Shown one piece after another: positions 1 to 31,729 of a DNA stretch of 32,129 nt; within the stretch, counting starts at the first letter, position 1; every line of letters starts with the position of its first letter. The stretch comes from a virus. Taxonomy: Duplodnaviria; Caudoviricetes. The position numbers and the translations under genes are program-made. The notes under the pieces are model-generated. The model searched no databases and was not told where the DNA came from. It saw only the letters and a list, made by a program, of their open reading frames with translations. The stretch is taken from IMG/VR virus record IMGVR_UViG_3300008007_000006, positions 1 through 32,129 of that record; one strand, given 5' to 3'.

Positions 1-28
1 AAACTAAAAAATATTTTACGTTTTATAT
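1..28. repeat. 28-bp terminal direct repeat, copy 1 (likely circular assembly overlap)
   Basis: AAACTAAAAAATATTTTACGTTTTATAT at 1-28 is identical to 32102-32129. Confidence 0.9.
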
Positions 29-33
29 AAATA
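26..33 (+). promoter_or_regulatory. T4-late-type promoter motif TATAAATA upstream of the plus-strand operon
   Basis: TTTATATAAATACTAATGTAAA is nearly identical to TTTATATAAATAGTAATGTAAA at 31680-31701; followed by an AC-rich leader and AAGGAG RBS. Confidence 0.65.
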
Positions 34-70
34 CTAATGTAAATACAAAACAACTTAAAGGAGATTTACA

Positions 71-499
71 ATGGTTAAAACACCATATATGAAAAGCAAA
101 TGGTCTTCTGTTAATGATAGACAGAAAGCATATTTGATTCACAGAAAAGCTAAAGACGGTTATTTCAAGAAAGATATTGAAGATAGAATAATTGAACTTG
201 GAAGACAAAAAAAACTTCATGAATTAGTTGGAACCGAATTATGGAAACAACTTAATTCACAAGGTATGTATAACGAATCACACCCTGTAGGTAGACCAAA
301 AATATGGATGAAACTTTCAGACAAAACAAAAGCTTACAATATTGTTGATAAAGCTAAAAACGGTTTTTACAATGAAGAACTTTGTAAAAGGATTCTTGAT
401 ATTGAAAACAAAGGAAGAAGACCAGACCTAGTTGACTTAGACATATGGTCAATACTAACAACGTCTGGAACATACTATGACGACAAGGAAGGAGAATAA
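71..499 (+). CDS. Hypothetical protein made of two copies of a ~57-aa domain shared with the helicase C-terminus
   Basis: AAGGAG RBS; internal duplication W..KAY.I..KAK.G[YF][FY]..RI..LV..[LI]W..L...G. Confidence 0.8.
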   Translation: MVKTPYMKSKWSSVNDRQKAYLIHRKAKDGYFKKDIEDRIIELGRQKKLHELVGTELWKQLNSQGMYNESHPVGRPKIWMKLSDKTKAYNIVDKAKNGFYNEELCKRILDIENKGRRPDLVDLDIWSILTTSGTYYDDKEGE

Positions 500-501
500 C
501 A

Positions 502-729
502 GTGATTGTTAAAACATTAGAGTATGTAATAAACAATAGTCATTATCAGGGTGATGTTGAATATAAAAGCAAATTTCAGATGGAAAAAGAACATAGTTTA
601 GCATCAGACATTATATTGAAATGTTTTTTAAATGACGATAAAGTTGAACAAGAAGCTAGGAAGGTAGGACTGGAAAAAGCAAGAGACTCCGTCATACTCG
701 CCATTAGAGATAACATAGAAATAATTTAA
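502..729 (+). CDS. Hypothetical protein (75 aa)
   Basis: GTG start with GAAGGAG RBS; tightly packed in the operon. Confidence 0.7.
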   Translation: MIVKTLEYVINNSHYQGDVEYKSKFQMEKEHSLASDIILKCFLNDDKVEQEARKVGLEKARDSVILAIRDNIEII

Positions 730-741
730 GGATACTTTATA

Positions 742-1041
742 ATGAACAGAGAGAAATTAAAATTGCAAAGAATACCTACTATGGTTGAAAGTAATTCAGA
801 CGTTCAAACCTGTGTATTGGAAACTTTGAGGGACGCAGTAGTAACTATTGTTACTACTAATGGTGAAATTAGTGGAGTAATACAAACTAGCGATGCTTTC
901 ACAATACTTGTAGAGGTATCATCTGGTTCTAATAGGTTAGTATACAAAAGCCAAATTGTGTATATTTTATTTGAATCTGACGTGAAAAATGTTACTGAAC
1001 GAATAAAAATGAAAAAAATAAACAGAAAGAGTAAAGGTTGA
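742..1041 (+). CDS. hfq: Hfq-like (Sm/LSm fold) RNA chaperone
   Basis: VQTCVLETLRDAVVTIVTTNGEISGVIQTSDAFTILVEVSSGSNRLVYKSQIVYI aligns by eye with the Hfq core [56 protein letters not shown]; AAGGA RBS. Confidence 0.8.
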   Translation: MNREKLKLQRIPTMVESNSDVQTCVLETLRDAVVTIVTTNGEISGVIQTSDAFTILVEVSSGSNRLVYKSQIVYILFESDVKNVTERIKMKKINRKSKG

Positions 1042-1044
1042 AAT

Positions 1045-1560
1045 ATGTCAGATACCGAAAACGAAACACGGGTACCAAGTTGTGCCCGTTATTTTGATCC
1101 TAAAAATTACCCCGTTGTAGGTATTGATACTAAGGTCTCTAGACTTGAATCTATAGAAGTATACGAAATTATGAATATATTACCTGTAACTATAGAAGAG
1201 GCAGAACAGATAGCTACTAAAATATACAAAGTTAAATACCTAGCTTATAATAACTACTACGAAGAAGATTGTCAAGAAATTTTAAACTGTGGTTCTGAAG
1301 AATTAATGAGACATGATGTTATGTATAGAACAGACCAACATGGGAAATACATAGAAAAGATAAAAATACCACAAAATGACCTTAAACACAAAATATATAA
1401 CATACGCAAGTTGGCCGAAGAAGGATATTATGGTCCAAAAACATCAGAAAAGATATTGTGCATGGAAAGCGAAGAAATATATACCATGAAGATGTATGAA
1501 GAACTTAATACACGCGGTAAACGTAGGCTTAAGAAAAAGAAACGAAAGAAAAAGAAATGA
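1045..1560 (+). CDS. Hypothetical protein with two degenerate copies of the shared domain and a poly-Lys/Arg tail
   Basis: KIYNIRKLAEEGYY..KILCM..LNTRG and KIYKVKYLAYNNYY..EIL; ends RGKRRLKKKKRKKKK. Confidence 0.75.
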   Translation: MSDTENETRVPSCARYFDPKNYPVVGIDTKVSRLESIEVYEIMNILPVTIEEAEQIATKIYKVKYLAYNNYYEEDCQEILNCGSEELMRHDVMYRTDQHGKYIEKIKIPQNDLKHKIYNIRKLAEEGYYGPKTSEKILCMESEEIYTMKMYEELNTRGKRRLKKKKRKKKK

Positions 1561-1898
1561 AAGAAAGAATACTTTCAATCGCAGAAATGATTGACGCATA
1601 TAGAATAGCACCAAGAGCCATACTAATAGTGTATGGCTTTTTGGTTTGGGAAATTTATATTTGGTTTAAATCTCTTGAAACCATAGCAAAAATACAGTGT
1701 CAAGAAGATATATTTTTTAAACTAATACAGAATGGTATTGATGTTAACAAAGCATCTGAAATAGCTTGTGTGGTTATAGAAGTTGTTGGTGGACCTACAG
1801 CACAACAGACAACGTTCGTTACGGCCATTGTGGGACTCTCTACCGCTATTATAGGATTGTATCTTAATAGCGGTAGGAGGTGGGAAAAAAAGGGCTGA
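1557..1898 (+). CDS. Two-TM membrane protein (possibly holin-like)
   Basis: Hydrophobic segments AILIVYGFLVWEIYIWF and FVTAIVGLSTAIIGLY; ATGA overlap with the upstream gene. Confidence 0.7.
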   Translation: MKERILSIAEMIDAYRIAPRAILIVYGFLVWEIYIWFKSLETIAKIQCQEDIFFKLIQNGIDVNKASEIACVVIEVVGGPTAQQTTFVTAIVGLSTAIIGLYLNSGRRWEKKG

Positions 1899-1922
1899 GA
1901 ACCTTTTACAGCGCCCAGCCCT
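1885..1922 (-). terminator. Intrinsic terminator ending the minus-strand structural region and/or the sRNA
   Basis: AGGGCTG-N18-CAGCCCT followed by TTTTTT on the minus strand, between convergent operons. Confidence 0.6.
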
Positions 1923-1940
1923 CACACACACACACACACA
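1923..1940 (+). repeat. (CA)9 dinucleotide tract
   Basis: CACACACACACACACACA read directly from the sequence. Confidence 0.95.
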
Positions 1941-1985
1941 TAGTTAGGGCGCTGCCCAACTGTATTTATTGGAAGGTTACTTTAA

Positions 1986-3695
1986 TCAGTAATTTTTCCG
2001 GTGAATAAATCTTCCTAAATTCCCAACTCTCAAACTACCATCAGATGTTCTTCTTATATTAGGAGGATCGTTAACCCCACATCCTACTAAAATTTCAGTG
2101 ACCGAACAAACAGTTGGAAACTCAAAAAGATTCCATTCAAATTCAATATCAAGGTTTCCATCAAAATAGTCTGAAAAAGCTATTGCGGTGAAAAACCCGG
2201 AATCTCCTATTGAACTGTTGTAAACTGCACCAATGTCAGACGCTTCTATAATCGATGGATTACTTTGTGAAGACGTAAATTCTTTAACTTGCAAATTTGT
2301 AATATTTAAATTTGAAAATTTGTATCTGAAAGTGTTAGAACCATCGAAAGATATAATGTAATATCTTACTGCGTTGGCAGTAGGTAATGGTGCAGGTGTA
2401 AACGTAAGAATACTATCGCTTCCTTGATCAAAGTTGTTATAGTTGTTTATAGATAAAATGTTTCCGTTTCTTATAACATTTATTGTTATTCTAACAAAAT
2501 CGGCATTATAATTAACTGCGTCCGGTGTTTGTTGAATAAACATAGACGGTGTCAAAATATCTGTACCAAATTCAGCAGTAAAGACCTGTCTTCTAAATGG
2601 TGAATCATAAGCAACACCTCCCTCTGGAGTAACATCAGTATCATCTATTATTTGCTGATCATAAACTTTAGTAAAACCAGAAATGTCTTCAATACCCAAA
2701 TATGTTTGTGCAGATACAACAATAATGTCTCCATTTTCTGCCATAAGCCCACTAAAGTCAACAGTTTCACTGGCGGTAGTCAATAAAATGTTATCATCAC
2801 CAGAACGGTTGTAAAATCTGTTACCGGTATAACCAAAAAATATAGAACAAGGATCATCACTAGGAACAGATAAACTTGGAGTTGGTGTTGGGGTTACACT
2901 GCTTGTAGGTGTGGGGGTGGGAGTAATAGACGCAGACAAAGAAATTGTTGGCGTAACACTTGGAGTTGGTGTAGGTGTAGGCGTCGGCAAGTTTGGAGCA
3001 AAATCATTGCTGTAAATTTCAAAGTAATTTAATCTAAAATCAACAAGAGTGTCATAAAACATATAAGGTAAACCAGACTCATAGGTTCTAGTTTGAACGT
3101 CTAGTATTAAACTATCACCCTCAGAAATATTTAATGTGTATAGGAAATTCTCTCCGTAGATCTGGTTAAGCAAAATTTCGTTTGTTGGAACCCAAGGTCC
3201 AGAAACACTATCAACCTCAATCCCATTAGAATCCAATTGTATAAACTTTGCTCTAAAGTCGCTAAGTCTGGGAGTGGCATTGGCTATTAAAAGTCTTGTA
3301 TTAAAACCAGTTATGGTGCAATCTTGGTCAAAAGTGTATCTCCATTTCCTCATAGAAGTTTCTACCGTACTAGGGTTAGCAACTTGTATAACACTATAAG
3401 AGTCATCTCCAAGAATAGGATCAAATATAGTTAACAGCCTATCCGGGTTATTAATAGGGTCAATATCACTTAGTAGGAAAAAAGTATAAGGCGTCCCCGG
3501 AGGTGGCGAAGGGGTAGGAGTAGGAGATGGTGTAACACTCGGACTACTACTGGGTGTAGGTGTTGGTGTAGGTGTAGGTGGTATTTGAGATGTTGAAGGT
3601 GTTGGTGTTGGACTAACAGGAATCGCCGACGCTACTGGGTCGGCAAATATTCTTTTGGTGTTAGTCCTTTTTACCGGATTAGTTCTATTTGGCAT
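1986..3695 (-). CDS. Putative virion-associated protein with two Pro/Thr (PT)n linkers separating beta-rich domains
   Basis: PTPTPTPTPSS repeats near aa 28-68 and 235-277; last gene downstream of the tail spike. Confidence 0.7.
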   Translation of the reverse strand: MPNRTNPVKRTNTKRIFADPVASAIPVSPTPTPSTSQIPPTPTPTPTPSSSPSVTPSPTPTPSPPPGTPYTFFLLSDIDPINNPDRLLTIFDPILGDDSYSVIQVANPSTVETSMRKWRYTFDQDCTITGFNTRLLIANATPRLSDFRAKFIQLDSNGIEVDSVSGPWVPTNEILLNQIYGENFLYTLNISEGDSLILDVQTRTYESGLPYMFYDTLVDFRLNYFEIYSNDFAPNLPTPTPTPTPSVTPTISLSASITPTPTPTSSVTPTPTPSLSVPSDDPCSIFFGYTGNRFYNRSGDDNILLTTASETVDFSGLMAENGDIIVVSAQTYLGIEDISGFTKVYDQQIIDDTDVTPEGGVAYDSPFRRQVFTAEFGTDILTPSMFIQQTPDAVNYNADFVRITINVIRNGNILSINNYNNFDQGSDSILTFTPAPLPTANAVRYYIISFDGSNTFRYKFSNLNITNLQVKEFTSSQSNPSIIEASDIGAVYNSSIGDSGFFTAIAFSDYFDGNLDIEFEWNLFEFPTVCSVTEILVGCGVNDPPNIRRTSDGSLRVGNLGRFIHRKNY

Positions 3696-8093: not shown

Positions 8094-8143
8094 TTTATCT
8101 AATATTTCCTATGTTTTATATATTTATTAAATTTACATGTTTG

Positions 8144-11100
8144 TTAGCTTGAAGTTGTAACAGTAAATTTGTTTTTACTTACTTCAGCATTTGTAAATGG
8201 TGCTGACCAAGAAGTAAACAATACTCTATAGTTATAGGTACCAGAACTTGGATTATCTACAAAAGGCTTAATAACATCAGTACTGTTTCTTACTGTACAT
8301 ATTCCCGGACTTAATGATGGATCACTTTCAGGAATCCATACAACACTACCACCCCCGCTTACCGTAGCCGTGGCAACAGTAGACCAAGAACCTGATGGTG
8401 CTATTCTTCTTTGTAATGATATTGTTCCGTTAATATTTCCGGGACCCGAACATGATGATTGAGGAGTTTGTATATTTTGATCCAAAGCTTCAAATTCGAA
8501 GTTACATTGTAACGATATACCACCAGAGCCAACTTCAATGTTAGAAGATGTTGCAGTCAAAGAGTTTGTTGTAGAACCACCGGTGGCAGTGTTTGTGGCA
8601 GAAAAAGAATCTACAGTAGTACCACCAGTGGGAATACCGAACGTTTCTGTATCTATAGAAGCAGTTCCATCTCTCTTAACCCAAAATATGCCATTTGCAT
8701 CATTAAGTGTATTACCATTACCCGCCCATATCAAATAATCAGGATGGTTGGCTAATATTCTAACATTAGTTAAAGTAGTATTTCCTACAATTACGCTACC
8801 TCTTGCTGTAATCTCGTTAAATTCAGCAGAACCCGTGTTTCTTTCTATCTTCCATCCTGTAGAACCTGCTACATAATTATCTGATTGAATGGTGTTACTA
8901 AACTTAGCACTTGTTATTGCAGCATTTTGGATATTAGCAGTTGCTATAGAAGCTTCTTGCATAGCGGCATTGTTAATAACTGCCGTACCTATGTTCGCTG
9001 AAGTTGTTATAATTTCATTAGCCCCTATCAAAGGAGAGGTAATACTTCCATCTTGAATTTCTGTTTCTGTTATTGTATTCGCTAATATGTTTCTTGGTGT
9101 AACAGAAGAAGAAGTTACCCAAACAGAAGTGTTTCCGGATGTATCAACAGCACGTATTCTATATTGATAAGTAACACCAACAACTACTTGATTATCAAAG
9201 AAGAAACTACTTGTTCCAGCTTGTGTATAGAACACGTTGTATGAACCTATTCCTACTCTTCTTTTTATCTCAAATTCTTTTAAATCAGAATCGCTGGGCC
9301 TGTTCCATGTAAGATAAACAGATTCGTATCCTGCTATTGCATTAAATGCAGTAACTGCCGAAGGTGCTCCGGTGTCTTGTGTTGTTGTATGACGTACTAT
9401 GTTTGTCCATTCCCCGATAACAGAACCAATTCTAGCTCTAACCCTAACAGTATATTGTGTTGAAGGAAGGGCTTCCATAGAATATTGAACAATGTTACCA
9501 GTATCTGGTTGACTCACCGTAGGCAAAGAAACGTTATTAGTAGATGTTTCTACAATCCATAGATCGTATTGATTTGCTCCGGTAACTTTATTCCATTGTA
9601 TGTTAAGACGTACCCTTTCCTGACCATTAGGAAGCTGCTCTAACGAAGAACTGACTACTAGACCAAGAACATTATCTGGATCAGGTTCAGGATCGGGTAC
9701 AGACAGTTCAGGAAGGGTTGTTACTTGTCCAGTAACATAGTTCAATCCGAATTTAGAATAAGAATCGTAAGCCGCAATTGCGTAGGTGTAAGTAGTATCA
9801 GCTACACCCTCAATTTTGTGAATTGTTCCTCTATCATCTTTTTGAAGGTTGTTTATTTTAGGAACAATAGGATCAGTTCCCACTATATGGTGAATGAAAA
9901 CACCCTCTGCATTTTCTTCTTCAAGGTAGGCATCGTGAGTTATTTTGTAATCTTCAAAAATGGGTACTGCTGTTACATTTGTCAATGCAGATGGTGGATC
10001 ATTTGTAAATCCAGTTATTCCTGTACTTGTACTCAATTGGAAAGAGTTGTCCCTAGCAAAAACTGCAAATCTTGGGGTTCTTGGTTTACCATCGAAAGGT
10101 ACGTTGTTCTGTTCAAAATAAAAACGTGCAATATCACCATCGTTAAAAGATACAAAGTTATCTTCTACTGTTAAAGTAGCTATAGTATCATCTGTGGTAA
10201 TATCTATTACATTTACAATGTAATCACGTAGCTGATCAGATTCTGTTCCGGCGACTGGGTCCCACGTTAAGTTTAAAACAGTGCCTTGCCATTTGTCATC
10301 ATCCATAGTAGAACCAGATGGATGGTCTACTCTAAAGTTTTGTGGTGCCAACAAACTAGAGTCTCCGGGCACTCCTACAATGAAAGAGGCTATTATAAAC
10401 CCATCCAGAGGTGCAGATTGTGTACCAAAGACATTGTATGCGTATATAGAATAATCATACACACCTTCATCAACATCGTTTATGACAAATCTAGACTGAG
10501 AAAGGTTGTTAGACCAAAAATATTGATCACCGTTTCTTCTGTATTTTATTCTGTAATAGGCAAGACTTGGGTTTGTAACATCAGACCAGTCAATGGTTAA
10601 ACGTAATTTGGTTTCACCATTAGCACCGGTATAAGATTCAAGAACAGAATTATCTCCGGTCGGAGCTTCAATATCATTTGAACCGAATGTTTGGAACGGA
10701 GAATCGTTGTCCAACTCAACTCCAGTTTCTACAGAAATGAACTTGTTTTCATTGTAATTTGCAGCAACAATCTCATATTCTCCAACACCATCTTCTTTGA
10801 TAGAAATAATTTGGAAAGGTCTAGGAACAACTAGACCTGTTATAACGTATGGTGTGTTTACCAAAGTACTTAAGTCAACACCATTTTCAAGTGTCAATTG
10901 ATTATCGGTAACACTTATAACGTTTCTTGTAACCTCGGTTCCGTCTGGGAGAATATACCTTACCACGTTGGAAGTAGAAAGGTCTTCAGAAGGATCAACG
11001 TTTACTACAAGAACGTTACCACTGGATTCTGCTGTAATAACTCCACCAACTATGGTATTAGCGAAAAAGTTGTCTGCAATCTCTATAACGTCACCAACTT

Positions 11101-12604
11101 CCAAGAATGCATTAGAGAAAGAAACTTTAAAGGTTGCAATTTCTGAGTTTTCCAAACCACTCAGTAGAATCCATCTTGCCAATCTTCTAGCTTGAGATTC
11201 TGTCGTAACTCCCACGGCGTTTACGCTTTTTTTGTTATATCCAAAAGCGTTAATTCTTGCTGAAGTTGTTTCTTCTATGATGGTTCTTGGTAAAAATTGC
11301 TCCTTACTATCATTAAAGGTAACTTCAACGGCAGTGGCCCTAGAAGACATTTCTGTTCCAGAGTATTCAAACTTACCGTCTATGACATTAGAATGAGTTA
11401 AAATAGCTTCTACTTCTTTTGGTCTATCTTGTACTATTTTTATCATGCCGTTAGAGTTTATTACCTGCGATCTAAAAGTAGAAGCAAGAGTCTGAATCAT
11501 TTTAAAATTTTCTTCTTGAGTCATCAAAGAGGCATTAAATCTAAATCTGTTTTCAAATCCACCATCACCGTCAGGTACAATTTCAGTGTTATATTGCGAT
11601 GCATCATAAAAACTGTAAATGTCAATGTCAGATATTTTTACAAACTCTCCCATTCCGTATCTTTCGTTAGTCAGAATGTCAAATAAAATCCAAGCAGGAT
11701 CGTCACACCACTCTCTAGCAGCTTTAAACTGCCCGTCCCATGTCCCACTATAAGATGCGTTAGAAATAACGTTACCTTGTTCGTCAAGAACGGTAGGTGT
11801 ATAGTTGCTAGGGACTAACACTTTAATACCTTTAACTATGTAACTTCTACGTGGAACTTGACCGCCCGTAGATTCTGAATCTAGTAATAGACCAACATGC
11901 GCTGCGTCATCATAAGTCATCTTAATATCTTGTAATTCTACTACAGATGAAAATATAATATCATTAGATAAAAAATCACTATTAGAAATATCATCAAGAC
12001 GCAAAACCCTAAGTTCCCATGCAACACCGGGTTGTGGGGATTCTATCCTGTAACCTTCTTGGTATGGCGTACGTGTTACCCCTGTTATAGTTTTAGAAAA
12101 AACATCTTGGAAAGTTCCACCTACAACACGAGTCTGTATCTTAATAGGAATTTGTGCAGCAGATGTATCACCGGTCTCTTGGTCAACCTCAATAAGCTGT
12201 GGTATCGTGACAATAACTCTAGCTGCGTCAGCGGAAGAACTTATAGAACGGGTTACGCCTCCCGGAGGATTTGGTAATTCTTGATTTACTGCAAAACCGC
12301 TTTCTACGTCTGGGAATCCCGGAATGTAATTCTGTCCCGGTTCACCTAATCTTTCTTCGAATGTTATTGCAGAAAAGTTGTAGTCTCCTGACTGGCTCTG
12401 TACAGGTGTATTATCAAAATAAACACCTTTCAAACCACCCTGAACACCAACGATGGGGCCTTCTGATATAGCTTCTACAACGGCAACTGTAGCGTTGCTC
12501 CTAAGACTATTTGGAGCCTGACGAGGTGGACCAGAACGGCCACCTTTTCCTCCACCACCTGAACCTTCAATTGTATAGTTTTTTATTCTATTATGTTTAC
12601 TCAT
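8144..12604 (-). CDS. Central tail fibre / tip attachment protein (lambda gpJ-like) with FN3 repeats
   Basis: GSGGGGKGG N-terminus, EAISEGPIVG, WDGQFK..WCDDPAWILFDILTNERYGMG, NYVAGSTGWKI motifs; FN3-type YQYRIRAVDTSGN. Confidence 0.93.
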   Translation of the reverse strand: MSKHNRIKNYTIEGSGGGGKGGRSGPPRQAPNSLRSNATVAVVEAISEGPIVGVQGGLKGVYFDNTPVQSQSGDYNFSAITFEERLGEPGQNYIPGFPDVESGFAVNQELPNPPGGVTRSISSSADAARVIVTIPQLIEVDQETGDTSAAQIPIKIQTRVVGGTFQDVFSKTITGVTRTPYQEGYRIESPQPGVAWELRVLRLDDISNSDFLSNDIIFSSVVELQDIKMTYDDAAHVGLLLDSESTGGQVPRRSYIVKGIKVLVPSNYTPTVLDEQGNVISNASYSGTWDGQFKAAREWCDDPAWILFDILTNERYGMGEFVKISDIDIYSFYDASQYNTEIVPDGDGGFENRFRFNASLMTQEENFKMIQTLASTFRSQVINSNGMIKIVQDRPKEVEAILTHSNVIDGKFEYSGTEMSSRATAVEVTFNDSKEQFLPRTIIEETTSARINAFGYNKKSVNAVGVTTESQARRLARWILLSGLENSEIATFKVSFSNAFLEVGDVIEIADNFFANTIVGGVITAESSGNVLVVNVDPSEDLSTSNVVRYILPDGTEVTRNVISVTDNQLTLENGVDLSTLVNTPYVITGLVVPRPFQIISIKEDGVGEYEIVAANYNENKFISVETGVELDNDSPFQTFGSNDIEAPTGDNSVLESYTGANGETKLRLTIDWSDVTNPSLAYYRIKYRRNGDQYFWSNNLSQSRFVINDVDEGVYDYSIYAYNVFGTQSAPLDGFIIASFIVGVPGDSSLLAPQNFRVDHPSGSTMDDDKWQGTVLNLTWDPVAGTESDQLRDYIVNVIDITTDDTIATLTVEDNFVSFNDGDIARFYFEQNNVPFDGKPRTPRFAVFARDNSFQLSTSTGITGFTNDPPSALTNVTAVPIFEDYKITHDAYLEEENAEGVFIHHIVGTDPIVPKINNLQKDDRGTIHKIEGVADTTYTYAIAAYDSYSKFGLNYVTGQVTTLPELSVPDPEPDPDNVLGLVVSSSLEQLPNGQERVRLNIQWNKVTGANQYDLWIVETSTNNVSLPTVSQPDTGNIVQYSMEALPSTQYTVRVRARIGSVIGEWTNIVRHTTTQDTGAPSAVTAFNAIAGYESVYLTWNRPSDSDLKEFEIKRRVGIGSYNVFYTQAGTSSFFFDNQVVVGVTYQYRIRAVDTSGNTSVWVTSSSVTPRNILANTITETEIQDGSITSPLIGANEIITTSANIGTAVINNAAMQEASIATANIQNAAITSAKFSNTIQSDNYVAGSTGWKIERNTGSAEFNEITARGSVIVGNTTLTNVRILANHPDYLIWAGNGNTLNDANGIFWVKRDGTASIDTETFGIPTGGTTVDSFSATNTATGGSTTNSLTATSSNIEVGSGGISLQCNFEFEALDQNIQTPQSSCSGPGNINGTISLQRRIAPSGSWSTVATATVSGGGSVVWIPESDPSLSPGICTVRNSTDVIKPFVDNPSSGTYNYRVLFTSWSAPFTNAEVSKNKFTVTTSS

Positions 12605-12616
12605 TTTAATGAATCC

Positions 12617-13330
12617 TTAATATTGTTCATATATCGGGTTAGGACTGATAGGAGGAGCACTACCACCACCGGGACCACCGGGATCTGGGGGAGAATCGTA
12701 TGTAGATAATTGCTCTATAGTTACCCCAGTACTTAAGACTACAGAACCAGTTCGACAGAAACCGTAACACAGAGGAACTGGATGACCCTGTTCTGTAGTA
12801 TTAACGGCTCTACTAAACAAAAAACTAGGTGTTGAATCTGCTTGTTCTCTTATCTGCGGAGAGGAAGGAGGAAATAATCCACCTATCGTAAGACTTATTC
12901 CTGCTCCTATTAATGCACCACCAACAGCAGAACCAACTGCACCAGTCAAAGCTGCAGAACCGAACAAAAATGCTGCACCGCCTCCGGTAAAGACCGTCAA
13001 GGCAATTCCACCTGCAATTAGAGCTATGCCTCCTATAATCTGTCCAACCCTACCAGATCCTTCTACAGAAGGTATAAGGTGAACTTCATTAGAAGAACCC
13101 ATATTCCAATCTAATGTTTGTTCCGTAAGAAAATGGTCACCGTCTTTTTGTTTTATCTTAACAAGCCATTCATTTTCTCTTATATGTCTTTTAATCTTAT
13201 GACCATAATTGGAAATAAGACCAGAAACCAAAGTTCTAATATCGTTACCAGAAATTACAACTGTATCGTTTCCTCCGCACATTTGCTTTAGTTTGCCATA
13301 GAGATGTATTGTTCTTCTTTTATGTTGCAT
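12617..13330 (-). CDS. Tail assembly protein (lambda gpI-like)
   Basis: TIHLYGKL, VHLIPSVEGSG, Gly/Ala hydrophobic stretch, NTTEQGHPVPLCYG. Confidence 0.9.
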   Translation of the reverse strand: MQHKRRTIHLYGKLKQMCGGNDTVVISGNDIRTLVSGLISNYGHKIKRHIRENEWLVKIKQKDGDHFLTEQTLDWNMGSSNEVHLIPSVEGSGRVGQIIGGIALIAGGIALTVFTGGGAAFLFGSAALTGAVGSAVGGALIGAGISLTIGGLFPPSSPQIREQADSTPSFLFSRAVNTTEQGHPVPLCYGFCRTGSVVLSTGVTIEQLSTYDSPPDPGGPGGGSAPPISPNPIYEQY

Positions 13331-14063
13331 GGTTTTTAACTTCCTTGTGTCTTAAAAATTTTGTCATCGAGTTTCTCCATCTTGAAAAACTATATTCTTG
13401 GGATAGTCTTTTATCCATATGCTGTAATATCTTGTTGTCTCCGATATATACAGCACCATGGTTGTTTTCTGTCGAAGAAATGCTTATCAGTATCATGTCA
13501 CCATACCTAAGTTCATCTTCGGAAACCTCAAAAAACCCTGCCGACTGGTAATATTTATCATATAAGTTAACTCCACCATCGTTCCACCACATGTATTCTC
13601 TTGGAACACTCATAAGTTCTATACCAAATTTCTGCCAATAGAAGGATTGTATTATGGTGTAACAATCATAAACTCCATGAATATAAGGTCTACCAATAAG
13701 TGGATGATCATTGTCAGGAAAAACAACAATATCGCTACAATTCTCACCATCACTACTTAATATACCAAATGGTATTTGTAATGAGTCTTGAGTTTGCATG
13801 TCTTTTAAACTTGGTGTTCTTGGGTCAACATTACTTCTGTATTTCAAAGAAAGTTGATTGGAAGTATGTGAATGTATCAAAATATCCGGAATATTTTGGT
13901 TAAATTTGATGGGGTCAATACGAAAATGTTCTACTGGATTTTCATGAATGTTTTCATAATATATTATATTTTGGTTCTTTATACCAAGAACAGCTTCTTC
14001 AGGATATTTCTTTAAGACGTAAGCACAAATATCTTCTTTTAATACATCTAAATTGTATTTCAT
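13320..14063 (-). CDS. Tail tip assembly protein (lambda gpK-like; Mov34/JAB + NlpC/P60)
   Basis: YPEEA, HSHT..PSLKD JAB motif; GRPYIHGVYDCY..NHGAVYIGD..ILQH NlpC motif. Confidence 0.92.
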   Translation of the reverse strand: MKYNLDVLKEDICAYVLKKYPEEAVLGIKNQNIIYYENIHENPVEHFRIDPIKFNQNIPDILIHSHTSNQLSLKYRSNVDPRTPSLKDMQTQDSLQIPFGILSSDGENCSDIVVFPDNDHPLIGRPYIHGVYDCYTIIQSFYWQKFGIELMSVPREYMWWNDGGVNLYDKYYQSAGFFEVSEDELRYGDMILISISSTENNHGAVYIGDNKILQHMDKRLSQEYSFSRWRNSMTKFLRHKEVKNHAT

Positions 14064-14095
14064 CGTACCTTATGTTTATGTGTGTGTTGTAATAA

Positions 14096-14103
14096 TATTT
14101 ATG
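14096..14103 (-). promoter_or_regulatory. Late-promoter-like motif CATAAATA(TTATT) upstream of gpK
   Basis: Minus strand CATAAATATTATTACAACACACACATAAACATAAGG before the ATG. Confidence 0.55.
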
Positions 14104-14121
14104 TAAATATTGATTTTTTAG

Positions 14122-14658
14122 TTAAAAGTTACGTAATCTAGACACACCCGGAGCATAAAGAGACCTTTCACCAAGATCTTCTCTAAGAATTTGTCTTCTG
14201 GGCAGACGCAAACCCGGTCTGTCCATTTTAGATGACAAAAGAAAAGTTATTATACTTTCGTTCATAAGTTGTTTCTGTATTATAACGTAACTTCTAGTAG
14301 GAAAGTGTTGGTTAGGATCAGCATCTACTTCTCCATCTAGAAAATTCTTATAAGTTCTCCATATAGTTACATTAGCACCCACCAAATCGTCATATTGTGC
14401 TACCTGTTGCATTAAAGTTTTATTCACATTGGATACCGTAAGATTTATTCTAGAAGGGGCACTGTTTTTTTCTTCTACAAACCCTTCTGCCAACACCGGG
14501 AATGGTTGATAAATTTTACCTCTCCAAGATGTTGGTTGTCTTATCGTAGAGGACAGATGAAATACTTGACTAGTGCCCAATGGGGTTAGATCAATTTCAT
14601 AACCTTCAAAAATTTCACCAACATAAGTTTGTTTGGACTGTTCTTTTATATCAGACAT
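14122..14658 (-). CDS. Minor tail protein (lambda gpL-like), short cysteine-free form
   Basis: YEIDLT, WRGKIYQPFPV.AEGF, PSRINLTVSNV, DDLVGANVT.WRT..FLDG, LPRRQI. Confidence 0.9.
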   Translation of the reverse strand: MSDIKEQSKQTYVGEIFEGYEIDLTPLGTSQVFHLSSTIRQPTSWRGKIYQPFPVLAEGFVEEKNSAPSRINLTVSNVNKTLMQQVAQYDDLVGANVTIWRTYKNFLDGEVDADPNQHFPTRSYVIIQKQLMNESIITFLLSSKMDRPGLRLPRRQILREDLGERSLYAPGVSRLRNF

Positions 14659-14999
14659 TATGCATATACCTCTCTAATTCTAAAAGAAACAGTGTATCTG
14701 TTTCCAACATTGGATTCGTTTGGGGCAGAATCTATCACAAACGATCTGGCTGTAGATTCATTAGGCGGAGTCCATGTAAAAGCCTGTACATATCCTACAG
14801 TCTCTATGAAAGATATAACTGTGTTTCTATCTACAAGACTTATATTGTCATAAACTATAGACCATTCATCGGTCATATCATTAATACCCCAAACCGCTCT
14901 CTGTTCTGCCCCGTCTCTAAATCTGACAGTGATAGTGTTTTGGTTTATTGTTCTACTTGAGTTTTGTGATATTTTTTCTGGTAATGGTAGTGCGCTCAT
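14658..14999 (-). CDS. Distal tail protein (lambda gpM-like)
   Basis: FRDGAEQR..GIN, AFTWTPP motifs; follows the tape measure gene. Confidence 0.88.
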   Translation of the reverse strand: MSALPLPEKISQNSSRTINQNTITVRFRDGAEQRAVWGINDMTDEWSIVYDNISLVDRNTVISFIETVGYVQAFTWTPPNESTARSFVIDSAPNESNVGNRYTVSFRIREVYA

Positions 15000-18982: not shown

Positions 18983-18990
18983 TATTTATA
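18983..18990 (-). promoter_or_regulatory. TATAAATA motif upstream of the tail tube gene
   Basis: Minus strand GTATAAATAGATT about 40 nt before the ATG. Confidence 0.65.
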
Positions 18991-19425: not shown

Positions 19426-19428
19426 TAT

Positions 19429-19833: not shown

Positions 19834-19835
19834 CT

Positions 19836-20156: not shown

Positions 20157-20162
20157 AATGAA

Positions 20163-20696: not shown

Positions 20697-20749
20697 AATA
20701 TTTTCCTTATTTTAAAAATTGTAATAAACTTTGTAATAGTTATTTATTG

Positions 20750-21054: not shown

Positions 21055-21067
21055 AATAGTATTTATA
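21055..21067 (-). promoter_or_regulatory. Extended T4 late promoter consensus TATAAATACTATT
   Basis: Minus strand CCTATAAATACTATTACAAACACAC, directly after the capsid terminator. Confidence 0.7.
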
Positions 21068-22114: not shown

Positions 22115-22122
22115 TATTTATA
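22115..22122 (-). promoter_or_regulatory. TATAAATA motif upstream of the major capsid gene, embedded in a palindrome
   Basis: GCTTTTAT-TT-ATAAAAGC at 22110-22127. Confidence 0.6.
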
Positions 22123-22184: not shown

Positions 22185-22871
22185 TTACTTACGCTTGGCA
22201 GCACGTCTCATGGCTTCTGTCAGACTGTAGTTTGGATCGGTTGGATCAAGACTAAAATCTAACTTACCATTAGTCGGTCTGGTTCCAGAGCCAGAAGCTC
22301 CGGTTCCTTCAAAGCATCGAGAATAAATCTCATCAGCTTTAAGTTCTTTCACCAAGTCTTCAACAGTTGCCTCATTACCGTCAATAAAATAAGGCTTACC
22401 GTCCTTCGAAAGAACTTCAATTTGTACATCACCGTCATCGGTGACTGTGTCTTTCAATCTGTTCCTGATCACAGGCTTTAACAATTCCGAAACACCCTTG
22501 TGTTTTGCTACAGAATCCGTAATCAAAGATTCTATCTTTGATTCTCTGTACTTGTTAACAAAAGAGTTAAGCTTATCTCTTTCTTTTTGTACTTCAGCCT
22601 CCAAGGATTTACGAAGTTCTTCTACCTTTTCGTCTGAAGAATTATCTTTCTTAGCTCTCTCTAGTTCCTGTTTTAGATTTTCAACGCTTGATGCTTTAGA
22701 TCTAAGATCTTCAACGTCAATTCCCTCAAACTTTTTAACAGACTCCTTTAGGGTCTTAAGCTCTCCTAGCAATTCATCACGCTTTGAAACCAAAGGCTGT
22801 TTGTATGACTCTAGTAGTGCTTTACCATCTTCAGTTTCTTCAAGAAACTTCTTTACTTCTTCTAAATTCAT
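22185..22871 (-). CDS. Capsid scaffolding protein
   Basis: Charged coiled coil with FEGTGASGSG C-terminal motif, between portal and capsid; AGGAG RBS. Confidence 0.82.
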   Translation of the reverse strand: MNLEEVKKFLEETEDGKALLESYKQPLVSKRDELLGELKTLKESVKKFEGIDVEDLRSKASSVENLKQELERAKKDNSSDEKVEELRKSLEAEVQKERDKLNSFVNKYRESKIESLITDSVAKHKGVSELLKPVIRNRLKDTVTDDGDVQIEVLSKDGKPYFIDGNEATVEDLVKELKADEIYSRCFEGTGASGSGTRPTNGKLDFSLDPTDPNYSLTEAMRRAAKRK

Positions 22872-22949
22872 TGTTTTCTCCTATATGTGTATATTTGTTG
22901 TTCAGGCGCTGCCTGTATTACTATTTAGCGATTCTAAAAAAAAAAATTA

Positions 22950-24302: not shown

Positions 24303-24374
24303 TTTTGTTTTATCCTTAAAGTGTTTTTTGTATTTATTATTAGAGTAGTCATCATATTTATTAACTTTTATATA

Positions 24375-25697: not shown

Positions 25698-26152
25698 TAT
25701 CCAGAGTTTCCTGAATCCTCGGACTGTTCTAGATACTGTTTGTCAAGTTCTTCCGCCCTATCGAAAGCTTCTTTTGTAATAATAATTCTAGGTATATCAC
25801 TAGGTGTTTCAGAAATATCCTGTATCTGTTTTGGCATAGATTGTTCCGCTAAAAACTTCACTATAGATACAAGATCTTTTGCAGATAGTTCTTTGTTAGA
25901 CAATTCTTTTATTATTCTAGGCAGACCTTTATTCTCCAATGCATCTAGACACATTGAGCGTACTCTAAGAATCTGTTGAGCATGATTAGAAGAAACTCCT
26001 CCTTTATTACCGGAGTATCCTTTTACAAACTTACCGTTTTTGTAACGTACTTGTCCAGATTCATTTTTGTATGCTATCTTTCCTTCATGAATAAAAGCGT
26101 CTACGGCCCATTGGGGCCATTCTTCTTCTAATGGTATTTGTATTTCTGGCAT
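25697..26152 (-). CDS. terS: Terminase small subunit (probable ATG start at 26152)
   Basis: GKFVKGYSGNKGG motif; directly upstream of and overlapping terL; GAGG 7 nt before the ATG. Confidence 0.72.
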   Translation of the reverse strand: MPEIQIPLEEEWPQWAVDAFIHEGKIAYKNESGQVRYKNGKFVKGYSGNKGGVSSNHAQQILRVRSMCLDALENKGLPRIIKELSNKELSAKDLVSIVKFLAEQSMPKQIQDISETPSDIPRIIITKEAFDRAEELDKQYLEQSEDSGNSG

Positions 26153-26205
26153 TTTCAATCCTCTAGTCGCTGACTGTTAGGGTTTTGTGTATGTGTGTAA
26201 TCTAT

Positions 26206-26553
26206 TTATCTGTTATTAAATTCAATAAGAATGTTATAGATGTTATCGATCTTTTTTGATATATCGTTAGCATCTTGAGAAGTTTTGTCTAAATATTTTT
26301 CTAGCGCATCTTGTTTTTGTTTGATGATGGCGGTTTCTTTTTGTATTTCAAAATGTTGTTTCTCTAGGGATGTAAGAGAAGTTGCTGTTGTTTTTAAAGA
26401 GTTAGCGATTTGCGCATCTAACAATATAATCAGATAACTTGATATTGAATTTTTTATTTTTTTCCACGCCATTCCTATTAAACTGGACATTCCTACTAGT
26501 ATTCCTATTACAAGGTATATTAAATGTGCAGTGTCACTATTCAAAATATCCAT
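26206..26553 (-). CDS. Membrane protein with one N-terminal TM helix and a coiled coil (possibly holin-like)
   Basis: LIYLVIGILVGMSSLIGMAW followed by a heptad-rich C-terminus. Confidence 0.65.
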   Translation of the reverse strand: MDILNSDTAHLIYLVIGILVGMSSLIGMAWKKIKNSISSYLIILLDAQIANSLKTTATSLTSLEKQHFEIQKETAIIKQKQDALEKYLDKTSQDANDISKKIDNIYNILIEFNNR

Positions 26554-26777: not shown

Positions 26778-26823
26778 CTTGTTTTCGTCTAATGTCTTAT
26801 TATTTATTATAAGTCGAATAGAA

Positions 26824-26850: not shown

Positions 26851-26884
26851 GTTTTACATGTTTATTTATGCAATTGTATTGTTT

Positions 26885-27358
26885 TTAAAAAGATATTATG
26901 TCTTCCGTAAAACTTTTTCTAGACTCAATAAGAACTTCTTTTTTATCAAAATCAGACTTTAGTTTTCTCTTTTTGTCCATTATCTTTTTCATCTTTGACG
27001 GTTCAGAAAATTTTTCTTCAGCATCTAGTTCTGCCCAATCTATAAAGTTTCCATCTATACCGGGTATTTTTTTCAGCATCCTATCAAGCTTCTTGGTTTG
27101 TGTTAATGTTGGGTCCAACATCATACAATCCTTTCTCTTGGAATGATAATTGAACATCTTTGGTATAAACTCAATCATTTCATCATCGTAACTGTTCCAA
27201 TTCAATGGGAAGCCATTGTTTATGATATGACTTATCAGTTGTATGTATTTCTTTTTAATTCGGTCTCTTTCTTCTTCGTTTAACACCAAGAACACATTCA
27301 TGTTATCTTGTTTTTTATTTTGTTTGCTGTAATATGCCTTGCTAATGTAAAGTTGCAT
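26885..27358 (-). CDS. Hypothetical protein in its own promoter-terminator unit (probable start MQLYI at 27358)
   Basis: GGAGAG RBS precedes the second ATG; TATAAATA at 27389-27396; terminator at 26824-26850. Confidence 0.7.
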   Translation of the reverse strand: MQLYISKAYYSKQNKKQDNMNVFLVLNEEERDRIKKKYIQLISHIINNGFPLNWNSYDDEMIEFIPKMFNYHSKRKDCMMLDPTLTQTKKLDRMLKKIPGIDGNFIDWAELDAEEKFSEPSKMKKIMDKKRKLKSDFDKKEVLIESRKSFTEDIISF

Positions 27359-27477
27359 CGTGTTTCTCTCCATTGTAAATTACCATATTATTTATAGTAA
27401 TTGTAATTTTTTACTAATAAATTTTTATTATTAAAAAAGAGAACTAAACTAGTTAGGTATTAGAAATTCAGAAACAT

Positions 27478-28986: not shown

Positions 28987-28988
28987 AA

Positions 28989-29351
28989 TCAATCCTCTTT
29001 TGTAACTTCTGGTAATATTTCTATATTTCCAACTAGTATCTTGAAAATGTTATCAATGTCTTCGATAACTTCTATGTCGTATACATATCCACCTTCTTTC
29101 ATTACTTGAGTATCTCGACTGCTTAGAAAAACAGTAAATTTACCTTCAAGAGCATCATCTATGGTAATGTCAAATTCTGTATAGTTGTTACCATCAAAAG
29201 TTTTTCTTATCTGGCCCTTTAGAGTAAGTCCGGTAAGATCTAAAGGAACAGGATCTGGTGATTCTGTGGTTTTTGTCTTAATAGAAAAAGATTTTGAAAA
29301 TCTATCACCTTGATAAATTTCTATATTAAGTTTTGCTGGTTTAGTACTCAT
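28989..29351 (-). CDS. Fibre-anchoring/baseplate-type adaptor (BppU N-terminal-like)
   Basis: NIEIYQGDRF, PLDLTGLTLKGQIRK, YVYDIEV..ILVGNIEILPEVT pattern, commonly adjacent to collagen fibres. Confidence 0.7.
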   Translation of the reverse strand: MSTKPAKLNIEIYQGDRFSKSFSIKTKTTESPDPVPLDLTGLTLKGQIRKTFDGNNYTEFDITIDDALEGKFTVFLSSRDTQVMKEGGYVYDIEVIEDIDNIFKILVGNIEILPEVTKED

Positions 29352-29470
29352 AAAACGTCCTTATAGTTATAGTTAACTTTCTTTGATACAAGAAAGTGAT
29401 AAAGCCTATGATTATTTATTAAAATACTTATAATGTTGACCAAAAACACGAGATATTTACTATTATGCTA

Positions 29471-30886
29471 TTATGTTTGTTTAAAGCCACCATTAGTATT
29501 AAGCTTTTCCCATATTGACAATTTTACTATCTCGTGTTTCTTATCGTTCTTTACCATTGACAAAATTTTAGTGTTAACCATTGGCATGTAAAACCCTGCT
29601 TTTGCTTTCTTTATTATGTTGTTGGCCTTTACTCTTTCTGTTGTATTGGACCATAATTTCTTTCTACCTGTTGACTTATTATTTCTTGCTTCAAATTCTA
29701 CTTCTATTTTGTTTAGCTTTACATTGTTAAAAGAGCTAGAAAGCTTGCAGTATAGTAATTCTGCGGTTTTTTGATCTACACAATGTATACTAACAGGGTC
29801 TTTCGATTTTCTATCTCTTAGAGAGCATCTCATTACAGCTTGGTAAAAAACGTTGGCCGATACTCTATTGTCTGCATAACCAACACCGTAGGTATCTTCT
29901 ACATATTTTCTGTATGTTGTTTCAAAGTTTGTTGTTTTGGTAATAACTACATTACTCACATGTTGATAGGTGTTCAGAGAATGAGAATTTACAGGCAATT
30001 CTGTCCAGTTGTGTTCAAACAAACCGTATGACTTGTTGTTCAACAATAAAGTATCTGTATCTCCCGATTTTCTCTTTATGGTTTCTACTATAGTGTTATA
30101 GTCGTTATTGTATTTTTCCTTGAAGTACCTACTATTGTTCTCTTCCATATAGAAAGAAATTGTGACTGGTCTATCAGAAGTTTCAGTTTCTATATTGTCT
30201 ACCTTAACCTTCGGGCAGTGTAAAACTACAAACTCATGTATGTCTGCATCTTCACCTAACAATATTGCGTCAGATGGGAAATATGTGTTAGATGGTTCTA
30301 TAGCACAACTGTAAGATACTATACCAGTATTAGAACTAGTGTCCTTCTTGACCAATTTCAATTTCAATTTTCCAGATTCTATTCTAAGCATCACATCTAA
30401 AATACCTGAAACATAGGTCTTAATATTAGAAGTAGAATTTCTTGAAAGCTTTTTCAACAAATTAAGGTTTTTTGGTAAAAGGTAGCCTTCATTATTTTCA
30501 AAATAAGTGTTGATGAGGTTTAATTCATTGCTGTCAACTAGAGTTATTCCTGATACTAAAGGCAATGGGTCGTCTACTACAACCTGATGTGTCAAATACC
30601 TATTTGGTGGTATTTGTTCGAACATCTGTATTGTACAAACCACAACGTTCTTGGTTTCATCTTTTAGGTATCTCTGTAAAGTCTCTTTTACATTTGCCCC
30701 ACAATGATCACTGTCTATTGCAATAACAGATTTTTCTGTGTGTTTTTGTATTAAATCATGTATTTCTTTTACTGCTGGTTTAGAGGGACATACGTAAAGA
30801 ACAGGTCTTTCGATAAACCCAAGTCTGTTTTTTATGAACGATGTAGTTTTTCCAGAACCACATGAACCCTTGATTATCTGTATCAT
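29471..30886 (-). CDS. SF2-like P-loop helicase / putative replication initiator with C-terminal shared domain
   Basis: Walker A GSCGSGKT, motif Ia LYVCPS, Walker-B-like VVVDD, motif VI-like YQAVMRCSLR; adjacent to the putative origin. Confidence 0.72.
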   Translation of the reverse strand: MIQIIKGSCGSGKTTSFIKNRLGFIERPVLYVCPSKPAVKEIHDLIQKHTEKSVIAIDSDHCGANVKETLQRYLKDETKNVVVCTIQMFEQIPPNRYLTHQVVVDDPLPLVSGITLVDSNELNLINTYFENNEGYLLPKNLNLLKKLSRNSTSNIKTYVSGILDVMLRIESGKLKLKLVKKDTSSNTGIVSYSCAIEPSNTYFPSDAILLGEDADIHEFVVLHCPKVKVDNIETETSDRPVTISFYMEENNSRYFKEKYNNDYNTIVETIKRKSGDTDTLLLNNKSYGLFEHNWTELPVNSHSLNTYQHVSNVVITKTTNFETTYRKYVEDTYGVGYADNRVSANVFYQAVMRCSLRDRKSKDPVSIHCVDQKTAELLYCKLSSSFNNVKLNKIEVEFEARNNKSTGRKKLWSNTTERVKANNIIKKAKAGFYMPMVNTKILSMVKNDKKHEIVKLSIWEKLNTNGGFKQT

Positions 30887-30952
30887 AACAATTTCCTTTT
30901 GGTTTTTTCAATTTAGTCTAGCAATCCCCACGATTACATTCGACTGCAATCT

Positions 30953-30960
30953 TATTTATA
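30953..30960 (-). promoter_or_regulatory. TATAAATA motif upstream of the helicase gene
   Basis: Minus strand GTATAAATAAGATT about 65 nt before the ATG. Confidence 0.6.
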
Positions 30961-30987
30961 CAAATTGACGAAAAGTAATATATAAAA

Positions 30988-31337
30988 TTTTACGGCATCT
31001 ATATTTTGATATTTGAGCAGTGGTCGCTTCGCTCCCTATTTGGTATAGCGACAATACCTGCGGTGCTATGGTTCTATATGTCGAAAGAAATAAAGAATCA
31101 ATTTTCCACTGAAGCGACAGCGAAGTGGAGTGACCGAAGGGAACCAGTTACTACATATTTGCTGGCTACGTATCCGGGTTTAAACCTCGTCTACTAAAGC
31201 CAGAGTGATCCGTCTCCAAGGAGCCGAATCACTTCTTTTTCTCTTTGTTTTTTGTTGCATGTAAAATTCTGTAAGTCATTGAAAATACTGGAAATATTAT
31301 TTTACGTTTTGATCTTAATAGTATAGATGCCGTAAAA
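30988..31337. other. Putative replication origin bracketed by 16-bp perfect inverted repeats
   Basis: TTTTACGGCATCTATA (30988-31003) / TATAGATGCCGTAAAA (31322-31337); internal CGCTTCGCT/GAAGCG motifs, hairpins and an IHF-like site at 31272-31284. Confidence 0.55.
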
Positions 31338-31352
31338 CCCCAATTTTGATAC

Positions 31353-31478
31353 AAAAAAAGCCCTACTTATGTAGGGCTTCGTTATACCAAAAGGCAACAT
31401 TCAAACGACTGTAGTCTCATAGGGCATGGGGTACCTCAACTACAGCTATTAAACGCAGGTCGAAAATTATCATTCAAC
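31353..31478 (-). ncRNA. Putative ~126-nt small RNA
   Basis: TATAAATA at 31484-31491 (-); 9-bp internal stem 31438-31446/31408-31416; terminator AAGCCCTAC-ATAA-GTAGGGCTT-T5; no RBS-led ORF. Confidence 0.6.
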
Positions 31479-31521
31479 ACTACTATTTATATCAATTTGA
31501 AATTAATAGAAAACTATTTGT

Positions 31522-31622
31522 AAAAAAAAAGCCCCGGATAAACCGGGGCGGATTTGCTTGGAGTTAATGTCTAAATGTCTATAGTAGTCTTTAGAAGACC
31601 GGCGTAGAACATTGCGTTCTAC
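31522..31622 (-). ncRNA. Putative ~101-nt small RNA
   Basis: TATAAATA at 31628-31635 (-); 5' hairpin GTAGAAC/GTTCTAC at the predicted +1; terminator GCCCCGG-TTTAT-CCGGGGC-T9. Confidence 0.65.
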
Positions 31623-31651
31623 ATTTCTATTTATACAGTTTGACAAAAAAC

Positions 31652-31680
31652 TTGACAAAAAACATTTTTTACTTTATACT
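31652..31680 (+). promoter_or_regulatory. Sigma70-type promoter TTGACA-N17-TATACT
   Basis: TTGACA 31652-31657 and TATACT 31675-31680; second TTGACA at 31640-31645; TATAAATA at 31684-31691. Confidence 0.8.
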
Positions 31681-31729
31681 TTATATAAATAGTAATGTAA
31701 ACAAACACACACAATAAAGGAGTTTAACA

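Follow-up and report, generated by a model that had tools for sequence, protein, structure and literature searches.

What drives transcription in a small tailed phage that carries the late promoter word of bacteriophage T4 in front of nearly all of its transcription units, and in which none of the T4 late factors gp55, gp33 and gp45 is detected? The question is raised by IMG/VR virus record IMGVR_UViG_3300008007_000006 (Duplodnaviria; Caudoviricetes), analysed here over a stretch of 32,129 nucleotides (nt), the window. It holds a complete circular genome, at 36% GC, in which 32,101 bases are unique and the ends overlap by 28 bases; CheckV rates it 100% complete with terminal repeats, and one run contains it as a single circular contig. 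Our analysis gives good support to the promoter system as a real one; that the phage is a satellite virus, switched on by a co-infecting T4-like helper, is plausible and unproven.

All nine exact copies of TATAAATA listed in the original prediction were found again, two on the plus strand (26 and 31684) and seven on the minus strand (5′ ends at 18990, 21067, 22122, 27396, 30960, 31491, and 31635; the coordinates first given for these were their low ends). The statement that every exact box is intergenic, in a genome with less than about 10% intergenic DNA, also held, with nine of nine sites falling in the 2,195 of 32,101 unique bases (6.8%) that lie between genes. This intergenic DNA is 70% AT, and the enrichment persists against such a background: 1,000 dinucleotide shuffles of it contained a mean of 1.3 exact boxes, and none reached nine. 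Among 56 words of the same composition TATAAATA ranks first, and TATAAT is not enriched; TTTATATA is likewise intergenic at seven of seven sites, four of these counts being the 26 and 31684 box sites themselves.

The variants named beforehand are all present, and one more was found (CATAAATA at minus-strand 26870). With NCTAAATA taken from that earlier list, and the wider pattern thus not chosen blind, NATAAATA or NCTAAATA precedes 15 of the 17 genes whose upstream gap measures 40 nt or more, and 1 of the 17 whose gap is shorter; 500 shuffles of the test for gapped genes gave a mean of 2.2 and a maximum of 7. The two gapped genes without a box encode tail chaperones and lie 3′ of the tail tube promoter. 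The variants had been said to precede most of the remaining units; the one at 1963-1970 points into no gene. The gap between the converging gene blocks (1899-1985) in which it lies also contains a hairpin and a run of TG dinucleotides, and a transcript from this box would be antisense to open reading frame (ORF) 1557.

The boxes share the geometry of T4 late promoters, which the relevant parts of two reports describe as TATAAATA at −13 to −6, with no −35 element and with A for T at −13 as the commonest variant (PMC1524935, PMC2988020). The main variant of the phage, AATAAATA, has A at −13 as in T4. No −35 column pattern is common to its box sites, as the original prediction had noted, and a single site overlaps a sigma-70-like sequence (weighed below). 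At the position 6 nt after the box, predicted as +1 from T4 geometry although the column table had been viewed before the test, the base is a purine in nine of nine exact sites (P = 0.007) and in 18 of all 20 sites (P = 0.002); 12 of the 20 have a pyrimidine-purine step there (P = 0.001). In a T4 control, a 50-kb late region, the same column holds a purine in 10 of 13 intergenic sites. Two of the phage's boxes (31635 and 31491) stand before predicted non-coding units whose opening hairpin starts on this very base and which close with intrinsic terminators.

The arrangement is conserved in related loci (given here as L-numbers). To the extent that their contigs cover the region, relatives at 72-73% capsid identity (L007-L009 and L086-L088, which form one lineage) and at 57% (L011) have boxes at orthologous places ahead of the terminase, portal, scaffold, and capsid genes and of those that follow. 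L086 and L009 have an exact box at the orthologous place before the portal gene; before the scaffold gene that place reads ACTAAATA in L086 and TATAAATA in L011; and the capsid box (22115..22122) and the box following the capsid terminator (21060..21067) are both kept in L086 and L011. The predicted +1 is A in six of six intergenic sites of L086, which has three further core matches inside ORFs, and in three of three of L011. A portal tree unites the phage and its box-keeping relatives in one clade (support 99); in the sister pair L012/L013 (support 92) the sites are weaker and of the GATAAATA type. Across 35 outgroup portal loci, many of them GC-richer, a single oriented intergenic exact site occurs, and seven outgroup loci at 33-38% GC (L239, L240, L248-L250, L254, and L255) contain none that is oriented. 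Because the sequence, the A−13 variant, the spacing to the predicted start, and the conservation in the clade agree, the prediction that the boxes are T4-late-type promoters is well supported.

That the phage builds its own head and lambda-type tail, as originally proposed, is borne out by its gene content. The leftward block encodes terminase, portal, scaffold, major capsid, neck, tail tube, tape measure, a lambda-type tip, fibre-like proteins, and a superfamily 2 (SF2) helicase, so that capsid and packaging genes and a complete set of head, neck, and long lambda-type tail genes are present; the rightward block encodes a phrog_914 protein, three orphans, an Hfq-like protein, and a membrane protein. 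Gene-family scans covered 34 ORFs (17 of these also against NCBIfam) and gave no match to integrase, repressor, polymerase, primase, sigma, gp33, gp45, or endolysin; the helicase is the sole replication-type gene detected. The gp55 family (phrog_234) has no candidate in the genome, and T4 gp55 compared with the ORFs and with all six frames gave best E values of 0.05-0.08, which are not significant. With gp55, gp33, gp45, and the T4 core virion and replication genes undetected in a complete genome, the phage does not belong to the T4-like phages. The closest relatives of its gpJ are in phages of Proteobacteria (about 30-34% identity), which suggests a Gram-negative host, probably a proteobacterium.

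The helicase belongs to a family (phrog_2467) that T4-like phages also have. Its predicted model (pLDDT 81) resembles XPD/DinG helicases (TM 0.41-0.45), with Atu_ph07 gp191 as the best match; gp191 is also the sole direct sequence match among cultured phages. Atu_ph07 gp191 and a metagenomic relative match 147 and 118 records, and among the 60 listed for each most are T4-like by name, a classification that in part we presume. The family profile finds RB49ORF044c (E = 1.5e-37) and Aeh1p034 (E = 8.1e-35); in both RB49 (L210 3504-4973) and Aeh1 (L213 2446-3885) the helicase gene is located directly upstream of gene 55, between 55.2 and 55, a place at which T4 has no helicase gene. Four of five helicase carriers tested have gp55. 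A quick tree was built from 76 rows (70 of 134 matches, five cultured proteins, and the phage's helicase); it places the phage's protein in a distinct clade of 17 rows (support 99), to which RB49 and Aeh1 do not belong. Contigs of 29.5-32.8 kb carry four proteins that are members of this clade or cluster mates of its members; helicase proteins and contig sizes thus suggest a wider clade of similar small phages. A search of IMG/VR for helicase loci found only the phage's own contigs.

The helicase ends in a domain of about 65 amino acids (aa), which marks a helicase clade of 460-520-aa proteins and of which the genome has four copies: two in ORF 71, one in ORF 1045, and one as helicase residues 405-470. 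Five cultured-phage helicases were not among the top 40 matches listed for a profile of this repeat. Adjacent to the helicase gene is a non-coding stretch, framed by a perfect 16-bp inverted repeat, that is a candidate replication origin; as a guess, the domain might bind this origin, with ORF 71 as competitor or partner.

On balance we lean slightly towards reading the phage as a self-encapsidating satellite that depends on a co-infecting T4-like helper for a late sigma of the gp55 type. Points in favor of a helper are that no lysin, polymerase, primase, or integrase is detected, that the phage has its helicase family in common with T4-like phages, and that the helicase of RB49 and Aeh1 adjoins gene 55. 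The broader proposal, of the phage as first member of a clade of fully tailed bacterial virophages of about 30 kb whose programme runs on the late sigma of a T4-like helper, with replication through a helicase of the family that adjoins gene 55 and with lysis left to the helper, is one that we hold with slightly more doubt than confidence; under it, two predicted small RNAs and the Hfq-like protein, timed to the late phase of the helper, could act against that helper. Of the original claim that this is a parasite of a T4-like phage, the T4-type boxes, the phage's own virion genes, and the lack of a recognisable gp55 stand, while neither helper nor host has been found.

Beyond the promoter anatomy, the course of infection that we infer is the following. 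The virion would enter a Gram-negative host, probably a proteobacterium, in which host sigma-70 would read at most the rightward operon, from 31652-31680. Helper-made gp55 and gp33 would then cause the boxes to fire via host RNA polymerase, and the helicase would open the adjacent non-coding region, allowing the helper replisome to copy the satellite. The replisome on satellite DNA would in turn load the gp45 clamp, which is needed for full late activation; gp55 alone gives basal, supercoiling-dependent transcription only, in the account cited here (PMC2988020). The satellite's genes would build its own head and tail, and the helper would supply lysis.

Several findings weigh against such a satellite. 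T4 degrades unmodified DNA, so the helper would have to be a non-degrading relative. No host was found (capsid relatives were present in none of 32 candidate stretches from GTDB genomes), and no helper: a scan for the 15-base origin repeat gave 115 loci, and of these, barring one 19-base match, none but the phage's own contig could be aligned further than the pattern itself. The apparent lack of polymerase, primase, sigma, and lysin is ambiguous, given that orphans remain and that many autonomous phages use host replication. The helicase, which groups in a 17-row clade apart from RB49 and Aeh1, was not captured recently, and its family is not confined to phages with gp55, for PH357 has a phrog_2467 helicase and no detected gp55; boxes in PH357 are weakly enriched despite the helicase (6 of 25 intergenic at 14% intergenic DNA, with 3 pointing into a gene; T4, 13 of 17), which makes the helicase an unlikely reader of the box. 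Among 73 distant capsid loci, the AT-rich L053, L060, and L070 have three intergenic exact sites each, irrespective of orientation. How an element with no detected integrase persists can only be guessed at: by co-entry, as described for MiniFlayer (PMC10690885), or in a plasmid-like state. No function is assigned to five short orphans (ORFs 71, 502, 1045, 26553, and 26885), and the sigma-70-like site at the head of the orphan operon allows a possible autonomous two-step cascade with a phage-encoded reader. Phage rV5 carries a similar late motif without gp55, as far as the cited text describes it (PMC3606486).

In such a cascade, which we regard as unlikely while giving it some weight, sigma-70 would read the rightward operon, and an orphan product or ORF 26885 would then direct polymerase to TATAAATA. 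The genome has several orphans of 74-171 aa, rV5 supplies a precedent, and the near-consensus TTGACA-17-TATACT at the operon head is the only match of at least 11/12 within 130 nt upstream of any of 34 genes; yet this site is not significant alone (P = 0.12 in shuffles), its TTGAC is part of a repeat common to the opposite-strand boxes 31635 and 30960, and over the whole genome sigma-70 matches are about as numerous as expected by chance (68 vs 63; 54 vs 52). The best candidate for an unrecognised regulator is ORF 26885, which is conserved and is the top, non-significant tblastn match to gp55 (E = 0.08). Its low-confidence model (pLDDT 56.5) is mixed alpha/beta, compared with the all-helical fold of sigma domain 2, and matches no fold among representatives of BFVD or PDB at E 0.001 or Z 5; its homologues form one cluster besides itself, with atlas matches at 0.75 only, and the gene itself stands behind an exact box. 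As for the other orphans, ORF 71 has no usable atlas match, and both it and ORF 1045 carry copies of the helicase C-terminal domain. An autonomous phage would moreover be one without a gp55-family candidate or a detected lysin, and its unrelated factor would have had to arrive independently at the same box as T4, with the same variant and spacing.

A sigma factor of the uncultured host, alternative or lineage-specific, might instead read TATAAATA without a −35 element, the phage having adapted to its host. This would account for a single promoter class in front of nearly all units, the helicase included, as a host promoter would give; it leaves the missing lysin and the link between helicase and gene 55 unexplained, phrog_234 was detected in none of 14 control genomes at E 0.001, and we know of no characterised bacterial sigma with TATAAATA specificity; we judge it unlikely, slightly more so than an orphan factor of the phage. 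The AT-richness of the intergenic DNA could also lead one to regard the boxes as compositional by-products, or as binding sites for proteins with no promoter function. The shuffles, the strict orientation, the purine at +1, the conservation at orthologous places, and the AT-rich outgroup loci lacking oriented exact sites make this very improbable. Hardly tenable, finally, is an archaeal virus in which TATAAATA serves as the TATA box for TBP and TFB: a TATA-like word, an aquifer habitat, and the enrichment of TTTATATA would suit it, but the distance from box to start signal is 6 nt and not about 25, a start codon coincides with the +6 base at two sites of L012, and the lambda-type tail tip is nearest to those of Proteobacteria phages.

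Table. Promoter boxes, predicted RNAs, and genes discussed in the text, in order of position
Feature	Position	Strand	Remarks
Exact box	26..33	+	Predicted start 39; would drive ORFs 71-1898
Orphan ORF 71	71..499	+	Two copies of helicase C-terminal domain (E 2.4e-20)
Hfq-like protein	742..1041	+	PF17209, E 1.5e-7; under the NCBIfam Hfq cut-off
Orphan ORF 1045	1045..1560	+	One copy of helicase C-terminal domain
Variant box	1963..1970	-	Faces small hairpin, no gene; antisense to end of rightward operon
Predicted virion or fibre proteins, 1,390 aa and 569 aa	3921-8093, 1986-3695	-	Behind variant box 8121..8128
Variant box	8121..8128	-	Before genes for 1,390-aa and 569-aa proteins
Tail tip module gpM, gpL, gpK (NlpC/P60), gpI, gpJ	8144..14999	-	Lambda-type
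Variant box CATAAATA	14096..14103	-	Before gpK, gpI, gpJ genes
Exact box	18983..18990	-	Before tail tube gene 18034-18945, chaperones, tape measure 15003-17135
Variant box	20741..20748	-	Before head-tail adaptor, closure, neck, terminator genes 19012-20696
Exact box (TATAAATACTATT)	21060..21067	-	Directly 3′ of capsid terminator 21102-21075
Exact box	22115..22122	-	Before major capsid gene 21124-22068
Variant box GCTAAATA	22922..22929	-	Before scaffold gene 22185-22871
Two variant boxes	24331..24362	-	Before portal gene 22950-24302
Variant box GATAAATA	26203..26210	-	Before small (25697-26158, by position) and large (24375-25697) terminase genes
Two variant boxes	26863-26870, 26801-26808	-	Flank terminator hairpin 26850-26824; before ORFs 26553, 26206 (putatively holin-like)
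Orphan ORF 26885	26885..27358	-	157 aa; behind exact box; 47% identity in 73% relative
Exact box	27389..27396	-	Before orphan ORF 26885
Variant box AATAAATA	29413..29420	-	Before BppU-like gene 28989-29351 and tail-fibre gene 27478-28992
SF2 helicase, phrog_2467	29471..30886	-	C-terminal domain of about 65 aa; behind exact box 30953..30960
Exact box	30953..30960	-	In front of helicase gene
Non-coding stretch, candidate origin	30988..31337		Perfect 16-bp inverted repeat at ends, 30988-31003 / 31322-31337
Predicted non-coding RNA 2, about 130 nt	31350..31478	-	Hairpin from predicted +1; terminator 31380-31357; z -5.7
Exact box	31484..31491	-	For predicted non-coding RNA 2
Predicted non-coding RNA 1, about 100 nt	31520..31622	-	Hairpin from predicted +1; intrinsic terminator 31549-31531; z -4.8
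Exact box	31628..31635	-	For predicted non-coding RNA 1
Candidate sigma-70 promoter TTGACA-17-TATACT	31652-31680	+	Overlaps 31684 box; head of rightward operon
Exact box	31684..31691	+	Predicted start 31697; would drive ORF 31730 and rightward operon
ORF 31730, phrog_914 protein	31730..32101	+	Lipoprotein-like N-terminus (by eye); first gene of rightward operon

Some features of the promoter regions and leaders deserve mention in their own right. The two rightward promoter regions (6-73 and 31659-31732) are 76% identical over 74 bases, which suggests that ORF 31730 arrived, or was duplicated, as a promoter-gene cassette. A hairpin with a C-N-G-C-G loop motif (a three-base loop closed by C-G) recurs in the sense-strand leaders before the terminase, scaffold, and capsid genes (phage minus strand 26175, 22914, 22183, 22162, and 1957; L086 295, 315, 3633, and 4371; L011 909 and 1625). 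These hairpins, counted without a chance control, occupy orthologous places in three lineages and have different stems; the motif may be a candidate binding site for a phage or helper protein. In L012, a deeper relative (12066-12330 and 5229), divergent GATAAATA boxes surround a long inverted repeat, and an ATG falls exactly at the predicted +1 at two sites, suggesting leaderless mRNAs in that locus.

The Hfq-like gene (742-1041) and the two structured, terminator-ended predicted non-coding RNAs (31350-31622) co-occur in one small genome. The Hfq-like protein has no PDB match, and neither it nor the ORF 31730 product, used as queries, matched any cultured phage; a tRNA scan of the genome found none, and Rfam gave no match. 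The 1,390-aa protein (3921-8093) has a C-terminal polysaccharide-deacetylase domain, with Gordonia phage minor tail proteins (about 25%) as its best cultured matches, and a short polymorphic spot within this large fibre gene (4777-4844) is represented by several tiny variant contigs in run X1. Two further fibre-like genes are present (1986-3695 and 27478-28992), and one could be guessed to attach to a helper virion. The genome is carried by 24 listed runs from 22 studies of aquifer, groundwater, and hot-spring metagenomes, although most of these runs date from one year and may belong to one campaign; none of the listed runs is of RNA, which counts neither way. Compared with the contigs of seven runs, and likewise with the circular contig of run X1, the genome shows no joint to other DNA among the matches listed, and the contigs of the seven runs yielded no short match with repeat-like flanks among those listed. 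A portal scan of GTDB genomes found no close relative and two distant loci at 28-31%.

If the satellite reading is correct, the virophage strategy extends to bacteria by way of a tailed phage that depends on the sigma factor of another phage. Well-known phage satellites steal structural parts, and the few with heads of their own are defined by missing replication genes; this phage looks autonomous by gene content and would therefore be overlooked by current satellite finders. T4 late boxes in a genome without gp55 would be a simple sequence criterion by which to look for parasites of T4-like and jumbo phages, and the phage gives a first functional handle on the uncharacterised helicase adjoining gene 55 in RB49 and Aeh1. 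A phage or host factor that turned out to read the box instead would likewise be new as a reader of the T4 late promoter.

The T4 late system (gp55, gp33, and gp45) has the same 8-base box, the A−13 variant, no common −35, an AT-rich spacer, and a purine 6 nt downstream. T4-like phages have such boxes ahead of late-gene orthologues and encode all three of these factors, whereas in this 32-kb siphovirus, with none of the three detected, the boxes also precede the helicase gene, two non-coding RNAs, and a non-structural operon. The phrog_2467 helicases of RB49, Aeh1, Atu_ph07, and PH357 have a homologous SF2 core; that of the phage is about 23% identical and forms part of a separate clade. A literature search, in which few subscription papers and no supplements were covered, turned up no tailed phage or satellite reported to use T4 late promoters in trans.

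Activation that depends on the helper is what the P4, PICI, PLE, and PICMI satellites would have in common with the phage. The late promoters of P4 respond to the P2 late activator Ogr, a point that the literature search did not confirm. The sections cited here describe P4, PICI, PLE, and PICMI as integrating and as taking capsids and/or tails from the helper (PMC10803314, PMC13595925), and PLE induction as tracking the transcriptional progress of ICP1 (PMC13595925). Unlike them, the phage has no detected integrase and no borrowed structure, and encodes its own head, packaging, and tail. The contrast drawn in the original prediction between this phage and known satellites was nevertheless overstated, since the Streptomyces Mulch/Flayer satellites encode their own encapsidation machinery (PMC10690885). 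MiniFlayer, MulchRoom, and Ando are reported, in the text available, to have encapsidation genes and to lack key replication genes, MiniFlayer also being without an integrase (PMC10690885, PMC13587820). The cited text mentions no use of a helper's late promoter by these satellites, a point for which no dedicated search of it was made. These self-encapsidating satellites are the closest in kind, although Ando has no tail genes and MiniFlayer has short fibres, whereas the phage has a complete long lambda-type tail.

Some virophages, as had been said of the mavirus type, use the late promoter of their helper; in the cited account it precedes every Mavirus gene, 12 genes of Sputnik, and 10 of Guarani, replication genes included (PMC6723459). 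Like the phage, these three have virion genes of their own; they infect eukaryotes and use the giant virus's own RNA polymerase, whereas the phage is tailed and, with a dependence read from its sequence, is predicted to use host polymerase with a helper sigma. By analogy, the phage would work like Mavirus and Sputnik while standing outside their family.

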